From Yuukianura sp. NJ FZ-2021 (Eukaryota), in contig CM102287.1 in assembly GCA_046563655.1 (NCBI GenBank), forward strand, positions 5,208,001 through 5,272,000: a DNA stretch of 64,000 nucleotides, read 5' to 3'. The position numbers and the translations under genes are program-made. The notes beneath the pieces were generated by a model, which did no database searches, was not told the origin of the DNA, and saw only the letters and a program-made list of their open reading frames with translations. Numbering within the stretch: position 1 is the first letter of the stretch; every line of letters starts with the position of its first letter. This document shows, piece after piece, positions 36,899 to 49,500 of the stretch.

Positions 36899-38712
36899 AT
36901 GGACTCCGATTCATCTTCGTCGCCACAAGATGTAGCAATGGACAGTGACGGAGAAGCCCCAAAAATTGCTGCGTCAACTCGGAATATGCTGGAAGAAGAT
37001 CTTGCTGGTATTTCAACAGTTCAACTTGTATCGTTTATTTTGATTCAAAGCGGAAACTAATTTTTCTTAACACTTTTCTTTTTTCAGTTTCCGGCTCAGA
37101 CTCTGATTCGTCAGCAGCCGGTTCCGCAAAGCATTCGGGATCAGCAAGAAGCCGAAGTCCAAAATCCGTACGATCTGGAGCTTCGAGTCGTTCATCACGA
37201 AAATCCGGATCAAGATCGCGGTCTGCCAGTTCTGGATCTGCATCGCCTGGCAGTCCAGGTTCTGCAAAAAGATCATCCCGAAGCAACAGTCCCAAGTCAA
37301 ATCGTTCCGGAGGTTCACGACATTCTTCACCCAGATCACGAGCTTCAAGTTCTTCTGGATCCCGTTCACCATCTCCAGCAGCACGTCGGGGATCTGACAA
37401 AGGAAGTCGCAAAAGTCGAAGTGGGAGTCCGCGATCTGTTGGTTCGGGATCAGGACGTGGAAGTGCCAAACATTCTTCGCGTTCCGGTTCACGCTCAGGG
37501 TCAGAGTCCCCCGGCTCACCACGTTCGGCTAAACGGTCTCCAGCTAAAAGAAGTCGTAGCGGAAGTCCTAAATCCCAACACTCCGATGAATCAGATGGAG
37601 GAGAACGTATTCCAGAACGCTCACCGCCACGGTTTGACCCCACAGATTCCGAATCTGGAGAATCTAAACCTGGGTCACCGAAATCAATCGATGGAAGAGA
37701 CCAAGAAGACAAAGAAAACGAAGCAGTGGCTGCCGAGGCAAAAGCAGAGGAAGAAGAGGAAACTTTGCCCGAAACTAGAATCGATGTTGAAATTCCTAAA
37801 ATCACTACAGATTTGGGGAAAAGCGTCCACTTCGTCAAACTTCCTAACTTTCTCTCAGTGGAAACTCGACCATTTGATCCAAGCACATACGAAGATGAAA
37901 TTGACGACGAAGAAACGTTGGACGAAGAAGGTCGTGCTAGATTGAAACTCAAAGTAGAAAATACGATTCGATGGCGGGAGAAGTTCAACGAAAAAGGCGC
38001 TTTCGTCAAAGAATCGAATGCTCGTTTCGTGCGATGGTCCGACGGTTCCCTCAGTCTTCATCTCGGCGACGAAATTTTCAATGTGGAGAGACAAGCTCTG
38101 CATGGTGACCATAATCACTTGTTCATTCGTCAAGGAACAGGTCTTCAAGGTCAAGCTGTTTTTCGTACCAAGTTAACATTTCGTCCACACTCCACTGAAT
38201 CCTTTACTCACCGGAAGATGACAATGTCCCTGGCAGACCGAAGTACAAAGGCCCAAGGAATTAAGGTTCTTTCTACTGTTGGCGCTGATCCGGAAGCTCA
38301 GCGTGACGTTTTGATTAAGAAAGAGGAGGATAAGCTCAGAGCTTCTGTTCGTCGTGAAAATAAGCAACGACGTGTTCGAGAACGTGGAACTAAAGGGCTG
38401 AGTACTTCGTATCTGGATGATGAGTACTCCGAAGAAGACAATTCCATTAGTCTGGCAGCGATTAAAAACAGATACAAGAAAGGCGGAGTAAGAGCACAGA
38501 TTTATTCTTCAGATGACGACGAGGGAAGCGATTTAGAACAAGGCAGGAAGCTGGAAAAGGCCAAGCGTCTTAAGGACTCTGAAGATGAAGATGACGACGG
38601 AAGTGACAATGATGCTAGAGGGCGCTCGTCACCCGGAGAAAAAGGAGATTCACCAATGGCAGGACCGTCGTCAACTACCGCCGCGGTGACATCAGCGGTG
38701 GACTCTGATTAG
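36899..38712 (+). CDS. Leo1: RNA polymerase-associated protein LEO1 (PAF1 complex), ~577 aa
   Basis: Exons 36899-37007 and 37088-38712. S/R-rich N-terminus, then [59 protein letters not shown]. Head-to-head with the PDSS2-like gene across CCGGAAG ETS-type motifs (~36325-36350). Confidence 0.96.
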
Positions 38713-40566: not shown

Positions 40567-43500
40567 ATGACTACGGGTGACAGTGACATTGGTGTTCTGA
40601 AAGTGACACAAACTGATGATCCAGGAAGTGTCGTTCTAGACAATGACGCTGCCGACATGTACAGATACCCTGCATGGACCATTGTTATTCTAATTGTCAG
40701 TTACTTAATTGTCTTTCTCCTTGGAATTGTTGGAAATGCTTCTGTTGTTTACGTCATTTTGAAAAACCCACAAATTAGTAAAACTGCGACGAATTTGTAC
40801 GTGGCCAATCTGGCTGTAGCGGATTTCCTAGTGGTCACAGTTTGTCTTCTTCCAACGCTTATCTCCAACATATATGTTCGTAAGTCCACATTTACTAAAC
40901 ACTTATTTTCTAAACTACAATTGTGTCAACAATGTAATGAGTTTGCAAAAACATAATGTTACGGTGCGTTATTCCTCGGACGAATAACCGCACCTGAAAA
41001 CGCTCGAATCTCCTCCCAGAACCTGGAGACTCCTAAAGAAATGACCGCTGACCTCTTGACCTCGATCCGTTATTGAGTCAAATCTTTATTAGAACTTGTA
41101 AAAGAAGATTTTACAAGAGAGAAAACTTTGCTCACCCAGAGCTAAACATTGAATGAATCTTACATTCCAGATCTAGTCTGGAGCAAAACATTTTACAGTT
41201 AGACTGTGTGGGTGGAACTGCAATTCCATCCTCACACACAAATCACATACCTAACGGTAAACCACTAATTGAATTAGCCTAGATTCCTACAACTAGGGGA
41301 GAAAAACACAAAAACAAGTAAACAAGTTGTCCTTGAGGGGTCACAAATGTACATTTTACCAGAAATGTAGCTAAAACTACGTGCAAGAAAACCTCTACAT
41401 AACAGTACTCCGGCGGATTTCTTAGTCACGTCCACGTGACTGCTCAGTTGTTATTGTTGTTGTTGTGGACGGCCGCAACGACGTTCACACGGGGATTGGG
41501 AATGTAATTTGGATTCGGTGGGGCTCCGGGTGGGGGCAGAAGGCGAGGTGGTCTTTGGACCAAACAGTCCGCAGCTAAATGGCCTTGGGCCCTACAAGTG
41601 TAGCAGATACGACGACGTGCGTTTTGCTGATTTCCTCTTCCTTGTCCCTGTCCATTCCCACCACCACCACGGCGAACTCCTCGTCTTCCTCTACGAGCTG
41701 TACGAGCTCCTCGACCGTCATTGATGATGATGACGATCTGCCGTCCATTTCGGTATTCTTGCCATTGAGGCATTCCTCGTACTGGCGGCGGGCGAACTCG
41801 CATCAATGCCACTTGGCGCTGACCTCCAGCGTGACCTCGTCGATTTCTGACGACTGGAGCGACGATCGGAGCTTGAATCACGGGAGCTTGAATCACGGGA
41901 GCTTGAATCACGGGAGCTGGAATCACGGGAGCTTGAATCACGGGAGCTGGGGCTGCTACTGCAGGCACCACGGCAGCTTCGTCATCGTCACTATCGTCAG
42001 CAAGATTGATTTCAGCGATTCCCTCTGCTGGTTGCTCCGGCATCTCCACATCATCTTCACCCAGTAACTCCCTCTCTCGATCCATGTTTCCTGAAACATT
42101 ACACAAAGTTAGCAAAATTGCAAACACAAAGTTAAAACAATGATCTTAAACACAAAGTTTAACAAAACAAACTTTAAAATCGTTAAAAAAAAAAACACTA
42201 AGTTTAGAAAAAAATCAAATTTTTACAAAAACAAAGTTTAAAATCGTTTGAAAAATCAAAATGAAAACTAATTAATAAAAAAAACACTAAGTTTTAACAA
42301 AACTTTCCACATAGGAAATTTCTAATTATTAAAAATTCACAAAGAATTTACAAAAAGTCAAACTTACCAACCATGTTCCTTCACTCAGAAGAAGAACGGT
42401 ACCTTATTGGTTTCCGAATGGTTCGGGCTGACCTTCGCACTGGTACTGCAGTTTGCTGGACTTCCTTCTTCTTGGCCTTCTTCACCACAACTGACCGACT
42501 TGGCTGCTGGACATGGACCATTTTAGCAATGTCCCCTTCGTCAGTGGCAGAGTCCGAGTCCACGTTGACACTAAGTCTAACGGGACTTTTCATTGATTCT
42601 GAGGAATTAGCATTCCTCTTCCTTCCAGACTGACTTTGAATTGGAATTTCTAATTCCGATAGCGACGAGCTAGATGAACTAATCTTTCTAGTTCGCTTCT
42701 TTTTCTTAATTTTTGAAGAAACAAATTCTTCATCAGAACTCGAATTGAATTCACTACGAAAGTGAAACAAATCCCTAACATGCACAATAATCGGCTTCCT
42801 ATTACTACCAATCAATTTGATTTGGTAGTTTACTGCCGATGTTTTCTTAGTCACCACATAGGGACCTTTGGTTTGTGCAAGTAAACATTGGGACAAGCCT
42901 TTCTTACGTACTGGCACTGAGCGCAGTACCTTATCGCCAATGTTAAAACCAACATTTTCCTTGTTTCTGTCAAAACGAACTTTTGACCTCTCATGAACTC
43001 TCCTAGAGTTCAAGGCAGCACGGAAGCGAGCAGCTTCCAGATCTCTAGGGAACTCATCCCTACGATCATTTTCAGAGCAACTAGGCAAATCCATGTCAAA
43101 TGGGAGCCTAGCCTCTCGTCCATGCACTAAGTAAAATGGCGAAAACTCTGTAGTCTCTTGCCTACTCACATTATAGGCAAATGTTGCCGATGCTAAACAA
43201 TCATCCCAGTTGTCCTGACTAGGATTAGCATATTTGGCAATTATTTTCTTCAAGGTCTGATTACATCGCTCAGTCATTCCGTTAGACTGAGGATGAAAAG
43301 GAGACGTGAAGTTGACCTTGAACTTCAGCTCCTCTTTTGCCTGTTTCACTAAGTCGGCAATGAACTGACGACCTTGGTCACAAACAAATTCTTTAGGTAA
43401 CGAATGCCTAAGAATTATCTTATCTTTTATATTAGCTACGACGCACTCAGCGGTAGCGTGGGTGACTGCTACAGACTCAACGTAGCGGGAGAAGTGATCA

Positions 43501-46500
43501 ATAAATATGAGCGCATATTTATTCTCCCTGTCCTTGGACTTCACCATTGGGCCAATAAAGTCAATGCCCACTCTCTCAAATGGGGTCGTGACCTCGTCAA
43601 AGTCTTGCATAAGACCTTGCTCTCGACCTCTACGCACTCTATGTATCTGACAGACCTTACAGCCTAGAACAAATCTACGCACGTCACGATACATTCCCTT
43701 CCAGAAAAAGCGGGATTTCACAGAGCTCCACGTTCTCGTCACGCCAAAATGTCCACTTAGGTCACCTGCGTGTACTGTCTCGAGAACTCGCTTTCTCAGT
43801 CCTTTAGGCACTACTAGCCTCCAAGAGCGACCTTCAGGCTCTAAATTAGCGGAATACAAAATTCCGTCTTTTAATGTGTAATCCTCCATATGACTTATGG
43901 ACGGATTTTTCTTACTTGATCCAGAGGCGCACTCAGCTTGCTCAATGGACTCAATGACCTTCCTTATCCATGGGTCTTGACCTTGACTCTCTTTCCAGTC
44001 CACCCCGTCTAGCACCAAGCATTCTGAGGAATCCATTGCCTCTGGTGGATCTACTGGAAACCTTGACAAGGGGTCAACGTCATTCGCGACCTTTCCAGCC
44101 CTATGGACGATGGTCATGTCCTGTGCCTGCAACACAAAGGACCATCTCGCAAGACGACCATTGGGGTCCTTCACAGAGAAGAGCCACTTCAACGCACTAT
44201 GGTCTGTCACTACGGTAAAATGAGTACCGTACACATAGGGTCGGAACTTCTGTACAGCGTACACAACAGCCAAGCATTCCAACTCGCTAGAGGTGTACCT
44301 CTTTTCAATGTCCGTCATTGCTCTGCTAGCATAGGCAATGACCCGTGGTTGACCTTCCTGGATTTGCACTAAGCTTGCTCCAAGGCCAAATCCACTTCCA
44401 TCACAATGGATCTCAAATGGAATTCCCTCCATAGGAAATGCCAAAATTGGACTAGTCACTAAGGCTAGTTTCAACTTTTCAAAGGCTTCATTTTGCTCAG
44501 CTCCCCACACAAAGTCCTGATCTTTTCTTAAAAGAAAATTCAGTGGAGCAGCAATCTTTCCAAAACCTTTAATGAATCTTCGGTAGTACCCACACATGTT
44601 CACAAAAGAACGAATGTGTGTTGGAGTTTTAGGTACAGGAAATTTAGTCACCGCAGACACTTTATCCTGATCTACCTCGACTCCCTCACTGGAAATGACA
44701 TGTCCAAGATACAAAATCTTTGCCAATCCAAATTTACACTTAGAAATTTTCAATGTCAAGTTAGCGTCACGAAAACGACTTAACACTGTCCTGAGGCGCA
44801 ACTGATGTTCCTCAAATGTCTTTCCCCACACAATTACGTCATCCAAATACACTAAGGTGCTCTCCCACTTAAGGTTCGACAGCACAACGTCCATTAGGTA
44901 TTGGAAACTAGAAGGACTGTTACAGAGTCCCATGGGCAGACGTCTAAATTGGTACAGACCATCCGGCGTCACAAAGGCCGTTTTCTCTTGGTCTTTTTCA
45001 TCCACTTCGATTTGATAAAACCCAGATACCAAATCGAGTACAGTGAAGTACCTAGCGCCACCAAGGCGGTCTAGAGCGTCTTCCATTCTCGGTAACGGAT
45101 ACGCATTCTTCTTCGTAATTGCGTTGATCTTCCGGAAGTCAATGCACAACCTTGATGAGCCATCCTTCTTTGGGACTAGCACAACAGGCGCGGCCCACGG
45201 GGAAATTGATTCTTCCACAATTCCCGCATCGCACAAAGCTTGGACCTTTTCCTTGATCTTCCTGCGCTCAACAAATGATGCGCGGTAGGGGTGAGATCTA
45301 ATTGGAGGATGATCTCCCGTCTCTATCTTATGACGAAACAAATTCGTCTTCCCCACTTTTGATTCGTCAGTCACAAAGACATCAGAAAATTCTTTCACTA
45401 ATTTGAGGACTTCAGTCTTCTCACTTAGAGTAAGATCCTCCCCCAAATCAATTTTAAAGTCATCCTGACTTTGCTTAGGCTGGACCGTTCCCATAGTACC
45501 ATCATGATCACTTAGAAGCATGACGCTGGCTCCCTTTGCACAAGGCGAACCAAATACAATTGTACTATTTCTGGGAAGTCTCACCTTCCCTTTATTCAGA
45601 TTAGTAATCCAAATATCCGTCTTACCATCTCTAATCACAGCGTACACATAGGGCTGGATTACGTTATGTTCAAACTGTAAGTTTCTGTTCGGAGACAGGA
45701 TCACTGAACCAGAAACTATGTCAGGGCAATGAACTGTTACCCTGTGTGCTTCCCTCGGTGGAAGTACAACAGTTTGCAACAAACAAAAGTTCCACATAGG
45801 ACTAGGCTCCTCCTCTTTTTCTGACACATAGTCTAGAGGGTTACCTATAGGCTTGTCACTTAGACTTGACCTTGAACTTTGCTTCGGACTGTCTGACCTG
45901 AATGTCCAATCCGTTCCAAGCAAAATTCTTTCTCTAAAACCTGGCATAACATGGAAACCCCACAAAGTAAGTTTACCATCATATGTCACCATCAACTCCA
46001 CAAAGTTAGTCAATGTTGTTTGTCCTAATGCCGTTGTCACTAAGAGCGGCGGTACCGTGTACTCCTTGTGTACAGCCTCCTTCACCTCCAGCAAAAACTC
46101 TGGACTAACAACACTAATGTTAGACCCCTCATCCACCCTCACAGAATAGGCTTTGCTACAGATAACAAATTCTGTAGTAATCCGGGGCCCTATTCGTTTA
46201 TGGCGGAAGGTTGCTGGGAGTGAATGACCTTCAACACAAGTCATCTCATTAACATCCACAGAGGATGTTGACTTCACCTTGGCTTGACTTTCAAGCTTAG
46301 AGGTTGATACCAGGCACGAGGCTGGTAATGACCTCCCTTGACCTTGCTTAGAACACGTAGTTCTAATTAACCTAATTTGCTTATCTTTCTTCTCCACTGC
46401 ACTGTCAAGCACAAAGCAAGACACAGGAGAAGAATTTACTACACTGAGTTCTGTAAGAAACTGATTCTTACCAACTGCGGAGTTTTTCAGGTGACCCCGT

Positions 46501-49500
46501 TTCACCTTTCTCAATCGTTTTTTGACTTAACGATTTCCTCTGCCGTCTCAGCGGCAACGCCATAGACAGAAGACGACGGTTTCGGCTTCCTGTCTGGACA
46601 ATCCCTTATGAAATGATCATCCTTACGACAACCATAACACAACTTTTTAGCCGGCTTCTTAGCCGTGTCACTCGAATCACTAAGGTTCGATGACCTTGAG
46701 GAACTCGATTCCTCCTTTGGCTTACCCACGGAGGGATTTTTGCTGACCCACTTAGGTTTATCAGCCTTATCCGGCTTGTCCATTTTTCGCAACTTTTGCA
46801 AAAATTCAGTCGGATTTTTCGGTTCTGCGCAGTACATAATGTTGCGCAGCGTGTCGGGAAGCCCTTTGGTCAACTTTTCGACCTGCTTCTTGTCCGACAT
46901 GTTCGGATCCAGCATCACAAAGATGCTCAACTTTTTGCTGACGTACTCCCCAGCGGAGCTACAATCAACAAACTTAATGGCACTGGCAGCCTTTTTCGCT
47001 TCCTTACGAACCGACTCAGGTTCGTAAAACGATTTTAATTGTTGTTTCAACAATTCCCACTTCTGATCCTTATTAGCGTCACTGAGATCGCTAATATACT
47101 TGATCTGCGCAAATTTCCACCAATCCTGTGCTTCACCTTCCAGAAGCAAATGGAAATTTAGGAGCAATAACCTGGAGTCAACTTGCTTTGTCTCCAGCGC
47201 AGCATCACATCTCACACAGAAAAGGTCGACATTCGATTTCCCATCGAATTTAGGAATTGACCTAATGACACTCTTTACATCGCTGGACATGACAGTCGCA
47301 GCGTTAGTGCCTTTACTGGTACCAGTTGCCATCACAAAGTACAACTTCCCTTTTGGCACTCAAACGAAATCTTTAGACAATAACCTTACGTGAGTTCCAG
47401 AACGTATGCCCCCAATCACGAAGTTCGAAGACTAGTTCCGTTTGCTCGTCCACCAAATGTTACGGTGCGTTATTCCTCGGACGAATAACCGCACCAGAAA
47501 TCGCTCGAATCTCCTCCCAGAACCTGGAGACTCCTAAAGAAATGACCGCTGACCTCTTGACCTCGATCCGTTATTGAGTCAAATCTTTATTAGAACTTGT
47601 AAAAGAAGATTTTACAAGAGAGAAAACTTTGCTCACCCAGAGCTAAACATTGAATGAATCTTACATTCCAGATCTAGTCTGGAGCAAAACATTTTACAGT
47701 TAGACTGTGTGGGTGGAACTGCAATTCCATCCTCACACACAAATCACATACCTAACGGTAAACCACTAATTGAATTAGCCTAGATTCCTACAACTAGGGG
47801 AGAAAAACACAAAAACAAGTAAACAAGTTGTCCTTGAGGGGTCACAAATGTACATTTTACCAGAAATGTAGCTAAAACTACGTGCAAGAAAACCTCTACA
47901 TAACAATAAATTGAAATTTTTTGTCAATCAGAAAATTTTTGTCACAAATTGCTCACAAAAAAAATTTGACCTCCTTTTCTTTAGCAATTTGAGTGAATTT
48001 TGAGATGTTGTTTCTAAAATTGGACATTTTTTTTAGAATTTCGGTTTCTAGAAGTTTCAAATCTAGCATGCCTTAACTTTTCTATTTTAACCGCACATGC
48101 AATCAACATCAAAAGTTAAAGTTTACCAGATTGGTGAAGGGTTAATGGAAAAGTATTTTAAGGAAGAAACGTCAAGTTACGAAGTGTAAAAGTAGAACTG
48201 AATAAGCGACGCTTCGTTGAATAATTCGTAAGTAAACTGTCACAAACATTTCTTCACAGTACGAAAAGCTTCACACCAATTTTATACCATCATAACTTAA
48301 TACACAACACAACCTAAATTAAATTTCCTCAAATTCGGAATAAAAAGACAAATTTTTTGGCAAATTGAATTCTTTCCAAACGTAATAAACAATTTTTATG
48401 AGAATCTTGCCAATTGGTAAAGATGCAAATTCAAACAGGATGCATTACGTTCCTATCAGGAAGCAACAAAATCACACTTATTGTTAACCTAAACAAATTC
48501 TCCAAACCGACAAAATTTTTTCAGTCTAAAAAGTTAACATAATTTAATAATCTAACTTAATTTTTGAAAGCTTGGATCCTGGGATGGTTTCTATGCAAAA
48601 CTGTGCCATACGTCCAAGGCGTCTCTGTCTGTGCATCTGTATACTCACTTGTTGCCATTTCCATGGATCGGTAAGCTTTCTCAAAGCATAACCTAACTAC
48701 CGTAACCTAAGCAACCTAATTACTCTAACCTAAGCAGCCTAACCAGCCTAGGTAATCCTACCAGCTTAATGGTGTCCTAATGAACTTAAAACCTAATTTT
48801 GCCAACTCACTGGAACTGCATCATATTTCGACAAGAACAAATTTGATTAAACACTCCCAGCACGAAAACTAATTAAAGATGGTCTTCGTCCGTACATGTG
48901 CAGAATACAAAGTTAGTTCGAAAAGAGAAATCTCTGAAAAGTTAATTCAGGGTGAAATTAGTAGGCGGGATTCCTTTCTTTCTCAAAAAAAGATTCAATA
49001 GTTCACAAAACTCAATAACTTTTAGAATATTTTGAAAATTTCAGTTCACAACGCCAAGTTTCCAAATTAATTCCAGGAAATCTCTAGGCTACGTACTTTC
49101 ACTTTCTTTCACTTTTACAATTTGCTTGCCCTCACTTCAACGAGTACGTCTTTTTTACACTTGTCAAAACAAAATGAAAGAAAAACTGGTGTAGCGGTTA
49201 ACTTAAATTAAACTTTCATGTAAGATTTCAAAGGAAAATAGTCCGAAGGAATTCCAATTTCAAAAATGGTACACTCTGCACCACTTTCTTTTTAAAAGTG
49301 TGTTTTCGCTAGACTAGCCTTTTGAAAATTCTTGTAAAGCTGAGCTTAGTAGTAACACGCGCCGCAAAACCAACAACGTCACGTTTGGCTTTTGATGACT
49401 CCCACTAAATATCCAGGAGGCATAAAAACTTAAACGTAACATAGCAATGTTCTTATCGTTAACTTTCTGTGGGTTGGATTGAACAAGTTTTGAAATTGAA

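Follow-up and report, generated by a model that had tools for sequence, protein, structure and literature searches.

A nucleocapsid-like zinc-knuckle gene in the env position, probably a lineage-conserved accessory gene of a young Ty3/gypsy element in Yuukianura sp.

The 64,000-nt stretch of contig CM102287.1 analysed here (forward-strand positions 5,208,001-5,272,000 of GCA_046563655.1, Yuukianura sp. NJ FZ-2021; hereafter the window, with positions counted from its start) carries on its minus strand a complete Ty3/gypsy (Metaviridae) retrotransposon with long terminal repeats (LTRs). Between pol and the 3' LTR, in the env position, this element contains an intact open reading frame (ORF3) whose small product combines an acidic head with a basic, zinc-knuckle-bearing tail. 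Sequence comparison with related elements indicates that ORF3 is probably a lineage-conserved, nucleocapsid-like accessory gene. With modest confidence, we interpret its product as a trans-acting nucleic-acid-binding accessory protein with a chaperone or packaging role, an interpretation that includes its expression from a spliced message. The gene and its main segments are as follows:

41444..42085, minus strand: ORF3, 213 amino acids plus stop (ATG at 42085, stop at 41446-41444)
41868..41948, minus strand: 15-nt tandem repeat, 5.4 copies with 96% matches, coding for five PVI(Q/P)A units
41669..41713, minus strand: arginine-rich stretch, 8 arginines in 15 residues (residues 125-139)
41564..41605, minus strand: CCHC zinc knuckle (residues 161-174), an exact CX2CX4HX4C

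An intact sense ORF in the env position had been proposed in a preliminary description of this DNA, and both the ORF and its composite layout were recovered. From the N-terminus, the protein consists of an acidic head containing the string IAEINL, the PVIQA repeat, an Arg/Gly-rich stretch, a G/N/Q stretch, the knuckle and a Pro-rich tail ending in N6. The five repeat units, the arginine-rich stretch, the G/N/Q linker and the Pro-rich tail of that description are all present, and the N-terminus that it called acidic has a net charge of -14 over residues 1-40. The product is predicted to be largely disordered and two-part, with the acidic head followed by a strongly basic, nucleocapsid-like tail. 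Its best match in the PDB is the HIV-1 nucleocapsid, aligned over residues 150-178 of ORF3, which comprise the knuckle and its basic flank (E 0.0098). The open run of 233 codons was equalled in none of 2000 shuffles of positions 41405-42380, in which the maximum was 216. GC content at codon positions 1, 2 and 3 is 0.74, 0.50 and 0.43, with the first position far above the third, and the third-position value (GC3) of pol is 0.44. This match in GC3 suggests that the frame has resided in the element for long and was not captured recently.

In animal gypsy elements, the third ORF is usually taken to be env. Env of the errantivirus type is a long glycoprotein that carries a signal peptide and a membrane anchor, whereas ORF3 encodes 213 amino acids without a membrane anchor, in agreement with the earlier view that the third gene is not env. 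The same view held that no transmembrane segment is present. The only hydrophobic stretch of ORF3, its A/V/P-rich repeat, reaches a Kyte-Doolittle value of 1.72 over 19 amino acids and trips a crude membrane-helix threshold; a helix is nevertheless unlikely because a proline occurs at about every fifth residue. ORF3 occupies the space from the spacer behind pol to the 3' LTR, and an env remnant was rejected as an explanation since the frame lacks a membrane anchor and its stop lies 39 nt short of the LTR. Directly past the ORF3 stop, before the polypurine-tract region, a perfect 6-bp inverted repeat (GTCACG tgga CGTGAC) was observed at window 41421-41443.

The element that surrounds ORF3 comprises the following parts:

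47458..47905, minus strand: 5' LTR, TG...CA, 448 nt
47444..47455, minus strand: primer-binding-site-like TGGTGGACGAGC, 2 nt past the 5' LTR, read directly
46511..47332, minus strand: gag, with Retrotrans_gag (PF03732, 26.5 bits, cut-off 24.1) and one CCHC knuckle
42381..46526, minus strand: pol, with protease region, reverse transcriptase, RNase H, integrase and a Ser-rich tail (stop at 42383-42381)
40957..41404, minus strand: 3' LTR, TG...CA, 448 nt, starting 39 nt past the ORF3 stop

The LTR length was obtained by aligning the element with the window in BLAST and reading the ends directly, a repeat finder having given just 300 nt. Aligned as 40955-41404 against 47456-47905, the LTR pair shows 99.56% identity over 450 nt (2 mismatches), and a TTAT target duplication flanks the element at both ends; the element is therefore young and complete. 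BLAST of the element revealed no second copy in the 64-kb window. gag and pol overlap by 16 nt in different frames. Within pol, Pfam identified RVT_1 (451-611, 115.5 bits), RT_RNaseH (703-800, 118.9 bits), Integrase_H2C2 (906-963, 71.2 bits) and rve (982-1079, 44.4 bits), and a GPY/F-type C-terminal module follows the integrase core as the last domain. This order of reverse transcriptase, RNase H, integrase zinc domain, integrase core and GPY/F module identifies the element as Ty3/gypsy.

Relatives of the element were collected through pol. When metagenomes were scanned with pol, 4 loci were obtained from 86 pattern matches, and a second scan of genome contigs with a three-pol alignment added 35 further gypsy loci; no relatives were found in viral contig scans with pol and the pol alignment, or in a first scan of genome contigs. 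The nearest relative found, L001, shares 45% identity with the window element in pol and 60% in the reverse transcriptase-RNase H region (RT-RH). Its post-pol ORF of 115 amino acids begins 26 nt past the pol stop and encodes a head with a net charge of -7 over residues 1-40 and a basic tail that contains two CCHC knuckles (zf-CCHC, 33.6 bits). The second of these knuckles matches that of the window ORF3 at 10 of 15 identical and 14 of 15 positive positions (E 9e-7). A search with the L001 ORF3 gave no match beyond that ORF itself. In the case of L002 (36% pol identity), an ORF opens 94 nt past pol and has a net charge of -12 over 34 residues, at which point the contig ends. An RT-RNase H tree was built for 26 rows with a quick method, after 14 loci had been excluded for stops or short matches. 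In this tree, the window element groups with L001 (Shimodaira-Hasegawa-like approximate likelihood ratio test, SH-aLRT, 98) and then with L002 (98), in nested clades.

Post-pol ORFs were counted where the pol stop could be located, which was the case for 27 of the 39 loci. Among these, one (L001) carries a CCHC ORF, five carry an env-like ORF of 509-884 amino acids (L003, L004, L016, L019 and L021), and another five a C2H2-finger ORF of 155-215 amino acids (L006, L008, L009, L011 and L012); of the rest, several have no ORF3, and in others rearrangement or short length prevents a call. Taken with the tree, the census shows that the type of ORF3 tracks the pol clade, the knuckle type being that of the window's clade. 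The preliminary description had allowed that ORF3 might lack conservation in sister elements; what was found instead is a CCHC ORF that is intact in 3/3 database copies of L001 from three sources, one of them with 4 substitutions, all outside the knuckles, and an acidic ORF start in L002. The comparative support, drawn from sequence, is real but rests on three elements, and we infer that homology among the ORF3s of the clade extends beyond the knuckle.

The C2H2-type ORF3s of the neighbouring clade have one or two C2H2 fingers at the start and an acidic end; that of L012 reaches 43.1 bits against zf-C2H2. Their positions, with that of a related ORF, are listed below:

L006, 6626-7093: C2H2-type ORF3
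L008, 8890-9363: C2H2-type ORF3
L009, 6591-7064: C2H2-type ORF3
L011, 10134-10607: C2H2-type ORF3
L012, 6791-7438: C2H2-type ORF3
L017, 9208-9654: related ORF without a finger

Two features of pol were also observed in the comparison. The pol C-terminus of the window (42384-42450), L001 (4700-4760) and L002 (5740-5817) has in common a long Ser-rich tail and then a basic RRSxRxxRxPxRY/F before the stop. In addition, the protease active-site motif at window ~46090-46130 (pol residues ~133-145) is non-canonical right after the catalytic Asp, whereas L001 and L002 have the usual form, and the window copy may be non-autonomous on this account despite its open frames. As a separate matter, 35 records labelled as bacterial metagenome-assembled genomes contain eukaryotic gypsy elements (L005-L039), some with env-like genes; L005 and L007, for instance, lie in a 1.09-Mb record and L030 in a 2.57-Mb contig. 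Their presence suggests that host DNA has contaminated the bins.

The proposed expression of ORF3 depends on splice-like signals in the leader and in the spacer between pol and ORF3 (a slash marks the exon-intron junction):

47388..47389, minus strand: leader donor-like CAC/GTAAGG, GT at 47389, 57 nt before the gag ATG (motif only)
42086..42380, minus strand: AT-rich spacer, 22% GC, from the pol stop to the ORF3 ATG
in the spacer, minus strand: 8-codon upstream ORF, ATG at 42374, 6 nt past the pol stop
in the spacer, minus strand: donor-like G/GTAAGT, GT at 42367, the sole perfect GTAAGT in the element
42091..42096, minus strand: acceptor-like TTTCAG, 5 nt before the ORF3 ATG

In all three elements of the clade, the ORF3 ATG is preceded at a distance of 4-5 nt by an acceptor-like TTT(C..)YAG: TTTCAG-GAAAC-ATG (window), TTTCACACAG-TTATC-ATG (L001) and TTTCTCGTAG-TAAA-ATG (L002). 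The same signal precedes only 61 of the 17254 ATGs (0.35%) on both strands of all DNA analysed, and on the sense strands of the window element, L001 and L002 it precedes 1/110, 1/129 and 2/130 ATGs, respectively; this contrast is large but inflated, given that the pattern was defined after the three sites had been viewed, which counts against its use in support of splicing. The preliminary description had placed a clean acceptor at 42091, and although its coordinates proved exact, 10 of the 15 upstream positions are pyrimidines, below a 12/15 filter. The micro-exon start that it had noted 6 nt past the pol stop is likewise present, and direct reading shows that a 42368>42090 join would leave ATG 42374 in frame with ORF3. 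Inspection by eye of the segment that runs from the LTR polyadenylation signal to the leader donor of the window revealed no ATG, so that a 47390>42090 message would offer the ORF3 ATG first. In retroviruses and errantiviruses, env mRNAs are made by joining a leader donor to an acceptor, and the leader donor and acceptor signals of the window, as read from the sequence, fit this pattern. The L002 leader has ATAG/GTAAAT 58 nt before its gag ATG, which matches the 57 nt of the window, with both leaders in view.

Other arrangements of these signals were also observed. In L002 (187-247 and 5852-5917), the pre-gag TTTCTCATAG-AAA-ATG resembles the pre-ORF3 TTTCTCGTAG-TAAA-ATG, and a GTAAAT is found 54-59 nt upstream of each; these paired signals may mean that one donor is used in alternative ways or that there are two short introns. 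Part of the window spacer (42122-42302) is made of short repeats, namely a 14-nt unit in 3.2 copies and a 57-nt family of three copies. A pol-ORF3 splice fusion from AAG/GTACCG near 42402 was rejected, as the joined frame stops after 11 codons.

We propose the following model. ORF3 is probably a genuine accessory gene of a small Ty3/gypsy clade, inherited within that clade. It would most likely be translated from a subgenomic RNA in which the leader donor is spliced to the acceptor-like site found 5 nt ahead of its ATG. The tail of the protein, in which a basic Arg/Gly-rich segment is combined with a retroviral-type CCHC knuckle, would constitute a free-standing nucleocapsid-like nucleic-acid binder, and the protein would act in trans, helping to chaperone, condense or package the RNA of the element. 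From the motifs and their arrangement, we infer the splicing, the RNA binding and the role in the element cycle.

Several results weigh against this interpretation. The second CCHC knuckle of the preliminary description is exact in pattern and has the HIV-1 nucleocapsid as its best structural match, but it scores 20.1 bits against Pfam zf-CCHC (PF00098), just below the cut-off of 20.8. The leader donor CAC/GTAAGG was found precisely at 47389, where it had been described; donor-like hexamers are, however, common (19 on the sense strand in 6.9 kb), and this one is not distinctive. The ORF3s of the window, L001 and L002 are unalignable outside the 15-residue knuckle, and when all 29 other knuckles in the DNA analysed were ranked, the L001 ORF3 knuckle led by only one residue, with 10/18 against 9/18 for two gag knuckles. 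Much of ORF3 is of low complexity and its repeat expansion is recent, and the element is so young that the intactness of ORF3 carries no information on selection. Furthermore, a Ser/Thr-rich, low-complexity open frame of 162 codons lies antisense over ORF3 (window 41579-42067, plus strand), although it is probably a by-product of ORF3 composition. Single-sequence structure prediction for ORF3 was uninformative, with a mean predicted local distance difference test score of 42.6.

Homology searches with ORF3 point in the same direction. In a word-indexed protein search, none of the 2343 candidates scored, and HMMER found no full-length homologue among 1.84 billion protein representatives. HMMER returned 48 matches at E <= 0.001, which span only residues ~130-205 (the knuckle) or ~10-107 (the P/A repeat); the 8 of these that were inspected are all multi-knuckle or unrelated proteins. 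ORF3 matched none of five related assemblies, and a search of the ESM Atlas gave no usable match.

Among the alternatives, the best placed, though still unlikely, is that the gene is real and expressed without the leader donor, from a promoter in the spacer, through a 277-nt intron (42367-42091) that uses ATG 42374, by spliced-leader trans-splicing, or by reinitiation after pol. The motifs for the intron route are unusually good: the element's only perfect GTAAGT (42367) pairs with tttcag (42091) across sequence of 22% GC, with ATG 42374 in frame. The host uses a GTAAGT donor in one receptor gene and a short T-rich intron of ~80 nt in the adjoining LEO1 homologue, and L002 has a GTAAAT 59 nt before its ORF3 acceptor. 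As for unspliced routes, accessory ORFs of the Drosophila MDG1 group are expressed without splicing (bioRxiv 10.1101/2025.03.14.642691). The intron route is opposed by L001, in which only 26 nt, with no donor, separate the pol stop from the ORF3 ATG; this leaves no space for such an intron, so the micro-exon is not a clade feature. Trans-splicing is opposed by the host's affinities, the best named relatives of LEO1 being arthropods, most of which are not known to use trans-splicing.

A less probable explanation is that ORF3 has no function, as a drifting captured host CCHC fragment, an old duplicate of the gag nucleocapsid or a low-complexity frame that is intact since the copy is young. The near-identical LTRs (99.56%) would have left no time for decay, and the low complexity, the recently expanded repeat and the overlapping antisense frame are all in keeping with such an origin, as are the want of any homologue beyond the knuckle among the 2343 word candidates and 1.84 billion representatives and the weak margin of knuckle similarity (10/18 against 9/18). 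On the other hand, a CCHC post-pol ORF that is also acidic and then basic occurs in L001 at only 60% RT-RH identity and is intact in 3/3 copies, the acceptor-like signal before the ATG is common to 3/3 elements, and the GC3 of ORF3 equals that of pol. Both a gag duplicate and a captured host fragment had been raised in the preliminary description. The knuckle alone is alike between ORF3 and its own gag (7 of 17 residues, E 1e-4), with no similarity outside it, and a recent gag duplication was rejected since the likeness is confined in this way; no host-like full-length homologue was found by the word-indexed search or by HMMER over the 1.84 billion representatives.

A further and bolder reading, which we consider improbable, extends the favoured model of a nucleic-acid-binding accessory protein. 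The clade would then represent "complex retrotransposons", in which a spliced acidic-head/zinc-knuckle protein serves as a trans adaptor for unspliced RNA in export, packaging selection or shielding from silencing. If true, it would be a functional analogue of retroviral Rev/nucleocapsid that arose outside Retroviridae, with the C2H2-finger ORF3 of the neighbouring clade as another such solution, reached independently.

The weakest candidate, which appears very improbable, is a Rev/Rex/Rec/Rem-like export adaptor whose Arg-rich motif binds unspliced RNA and whose head carries a nuclear export signal (NES) that recruits the export receptor: the 8 arginines in a 15-residue stretch, the small, disordered, two-part protein, and a gene position and acceptor-like signal suited to a spliced accessory message would agree with it, as would the export help that unspliced RNA would need if the element has introns, but the CCHC knuckle is a feature of nucleocapsids and not of the Rev family, the L001 and L002 heads are unalignable with the window head, and HMMER and PDB searches revealed no sequence relation to any Rev-type protein. 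A classical NES has four spaced hydrophobic positions. The string IAEINL, described previously as NES-like, is present and fills three of the four, with Pro/Ala at the fourth, so that the NES is incomplete and the Rev/Rex analogy drawn in the preliminary description is weak.

Regarding the host surroundings, a rhodopsin-type (neuropeptide-like) receptor gene holds the element in antisense orientation, ~75 nt inside its first intron. The neighbouring features on the plus strand are as follows:

40567-40880, plus strand: first exon of the receptor gene, ending TTC/GTAAGT
36949-38712, plus strand: LEO1/Atu homologue with one intron of ~80 nt, the adjoining gene

The best named matches of LEO1 are arthropod proteins at 68-73% identity, and two further database proteins reach 92-94%; these matches indicate an animal host, probably an arthropod. 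Rfam and tRNA scans of the window gave no matches.

Additional genes have been described in LTR retrotransposons of other hosts. In plants, the additional ORFs (aORFs) found in sense orientation between pol and the 3' LTR resemble env and have transmembrane segments; some, as in Bagy2, are produced from spliced messages, and accessory roles have been discussed by analogy with retroviruses (PMC7264820). They resemble ORF3 in position and orientation, whereas ORF3 is knuckle-bearing and belongs to an animal host. LTR retrotransposons of bdelloid rotifers have non-env ORF3s of GDSL esterase, DEDDy exonuclease, coiled-coil and transmembrane types, typically expressed from spliced messages (PMC5408684). 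Like the window ORF3, these are family-specific, non-envelope third ORFs of metazoan gypsy-like elements; unlike it, they are enzymes or membrane proteins, and they show no sequence relation to it. The MDG1 group of Drosophila Metaviridae has translated, non-Env small ORFs (sORFs) upstream of gag with no splicing seen, of which sORF1 is nuclear with a predicted helix-turn-helix and sORF2 is a transmembrane fusogen (bioRxiv 10.1101/2025.03.14.642691). These are likewise small accessory proteins of arthropod gypsy elements, but they are encoded upstream of gag and have no knuckle. The available portions of the plant, rotifer and MDG1 texts contain no mention of a zinc-knuckle ORF3 (PMC7264820, PMC5408684, bioRxiv 10.1101/2025.03.14.642691); within them, "CCHC" and "zinc" are absent from PMC5408684, and "zinc" and "RNA-binding" from PMC7264820. 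No report of a free-standing nucleocapsid-like protein in such elements was found in full-text literature searches that covered few subscription journals.

Beside the rotifer ORF3s and the MDG1 small ORFs, a non-env ORF3 of this kind adds to the evidence for varied accessory genes in LTR retrotransposons; if it is neutral, the finding amounts to one more lineage-specific open frame. A free-standing nucleocapsid-like protein, in an element in which gag has a knuckle too, would point to an RNA function in trans that is undescribed for these elements, and would offer a simple system for studying the way in which retroelements that contain internal splice sites safeguard full-length RNA. Compared with Rev, Rex, Rec and Rem, ORF3 is similarly small, Arg-rich, non-structural and located at the 3' end, with spliced RNA as a further likeness that for ORF3 is proposed only; it differs from them in its zinc knuckle, its incomplete NES and its lack of sequence relation. 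With the nucleocapsid domain of Gag (zf-CCHC, PF00098), it has in common the basic flank and the CX2CX4HX4C knuckle, whereas in the window this module forms a separate post-pol gene with an acidic head, and gag retains a knuckle of its own.

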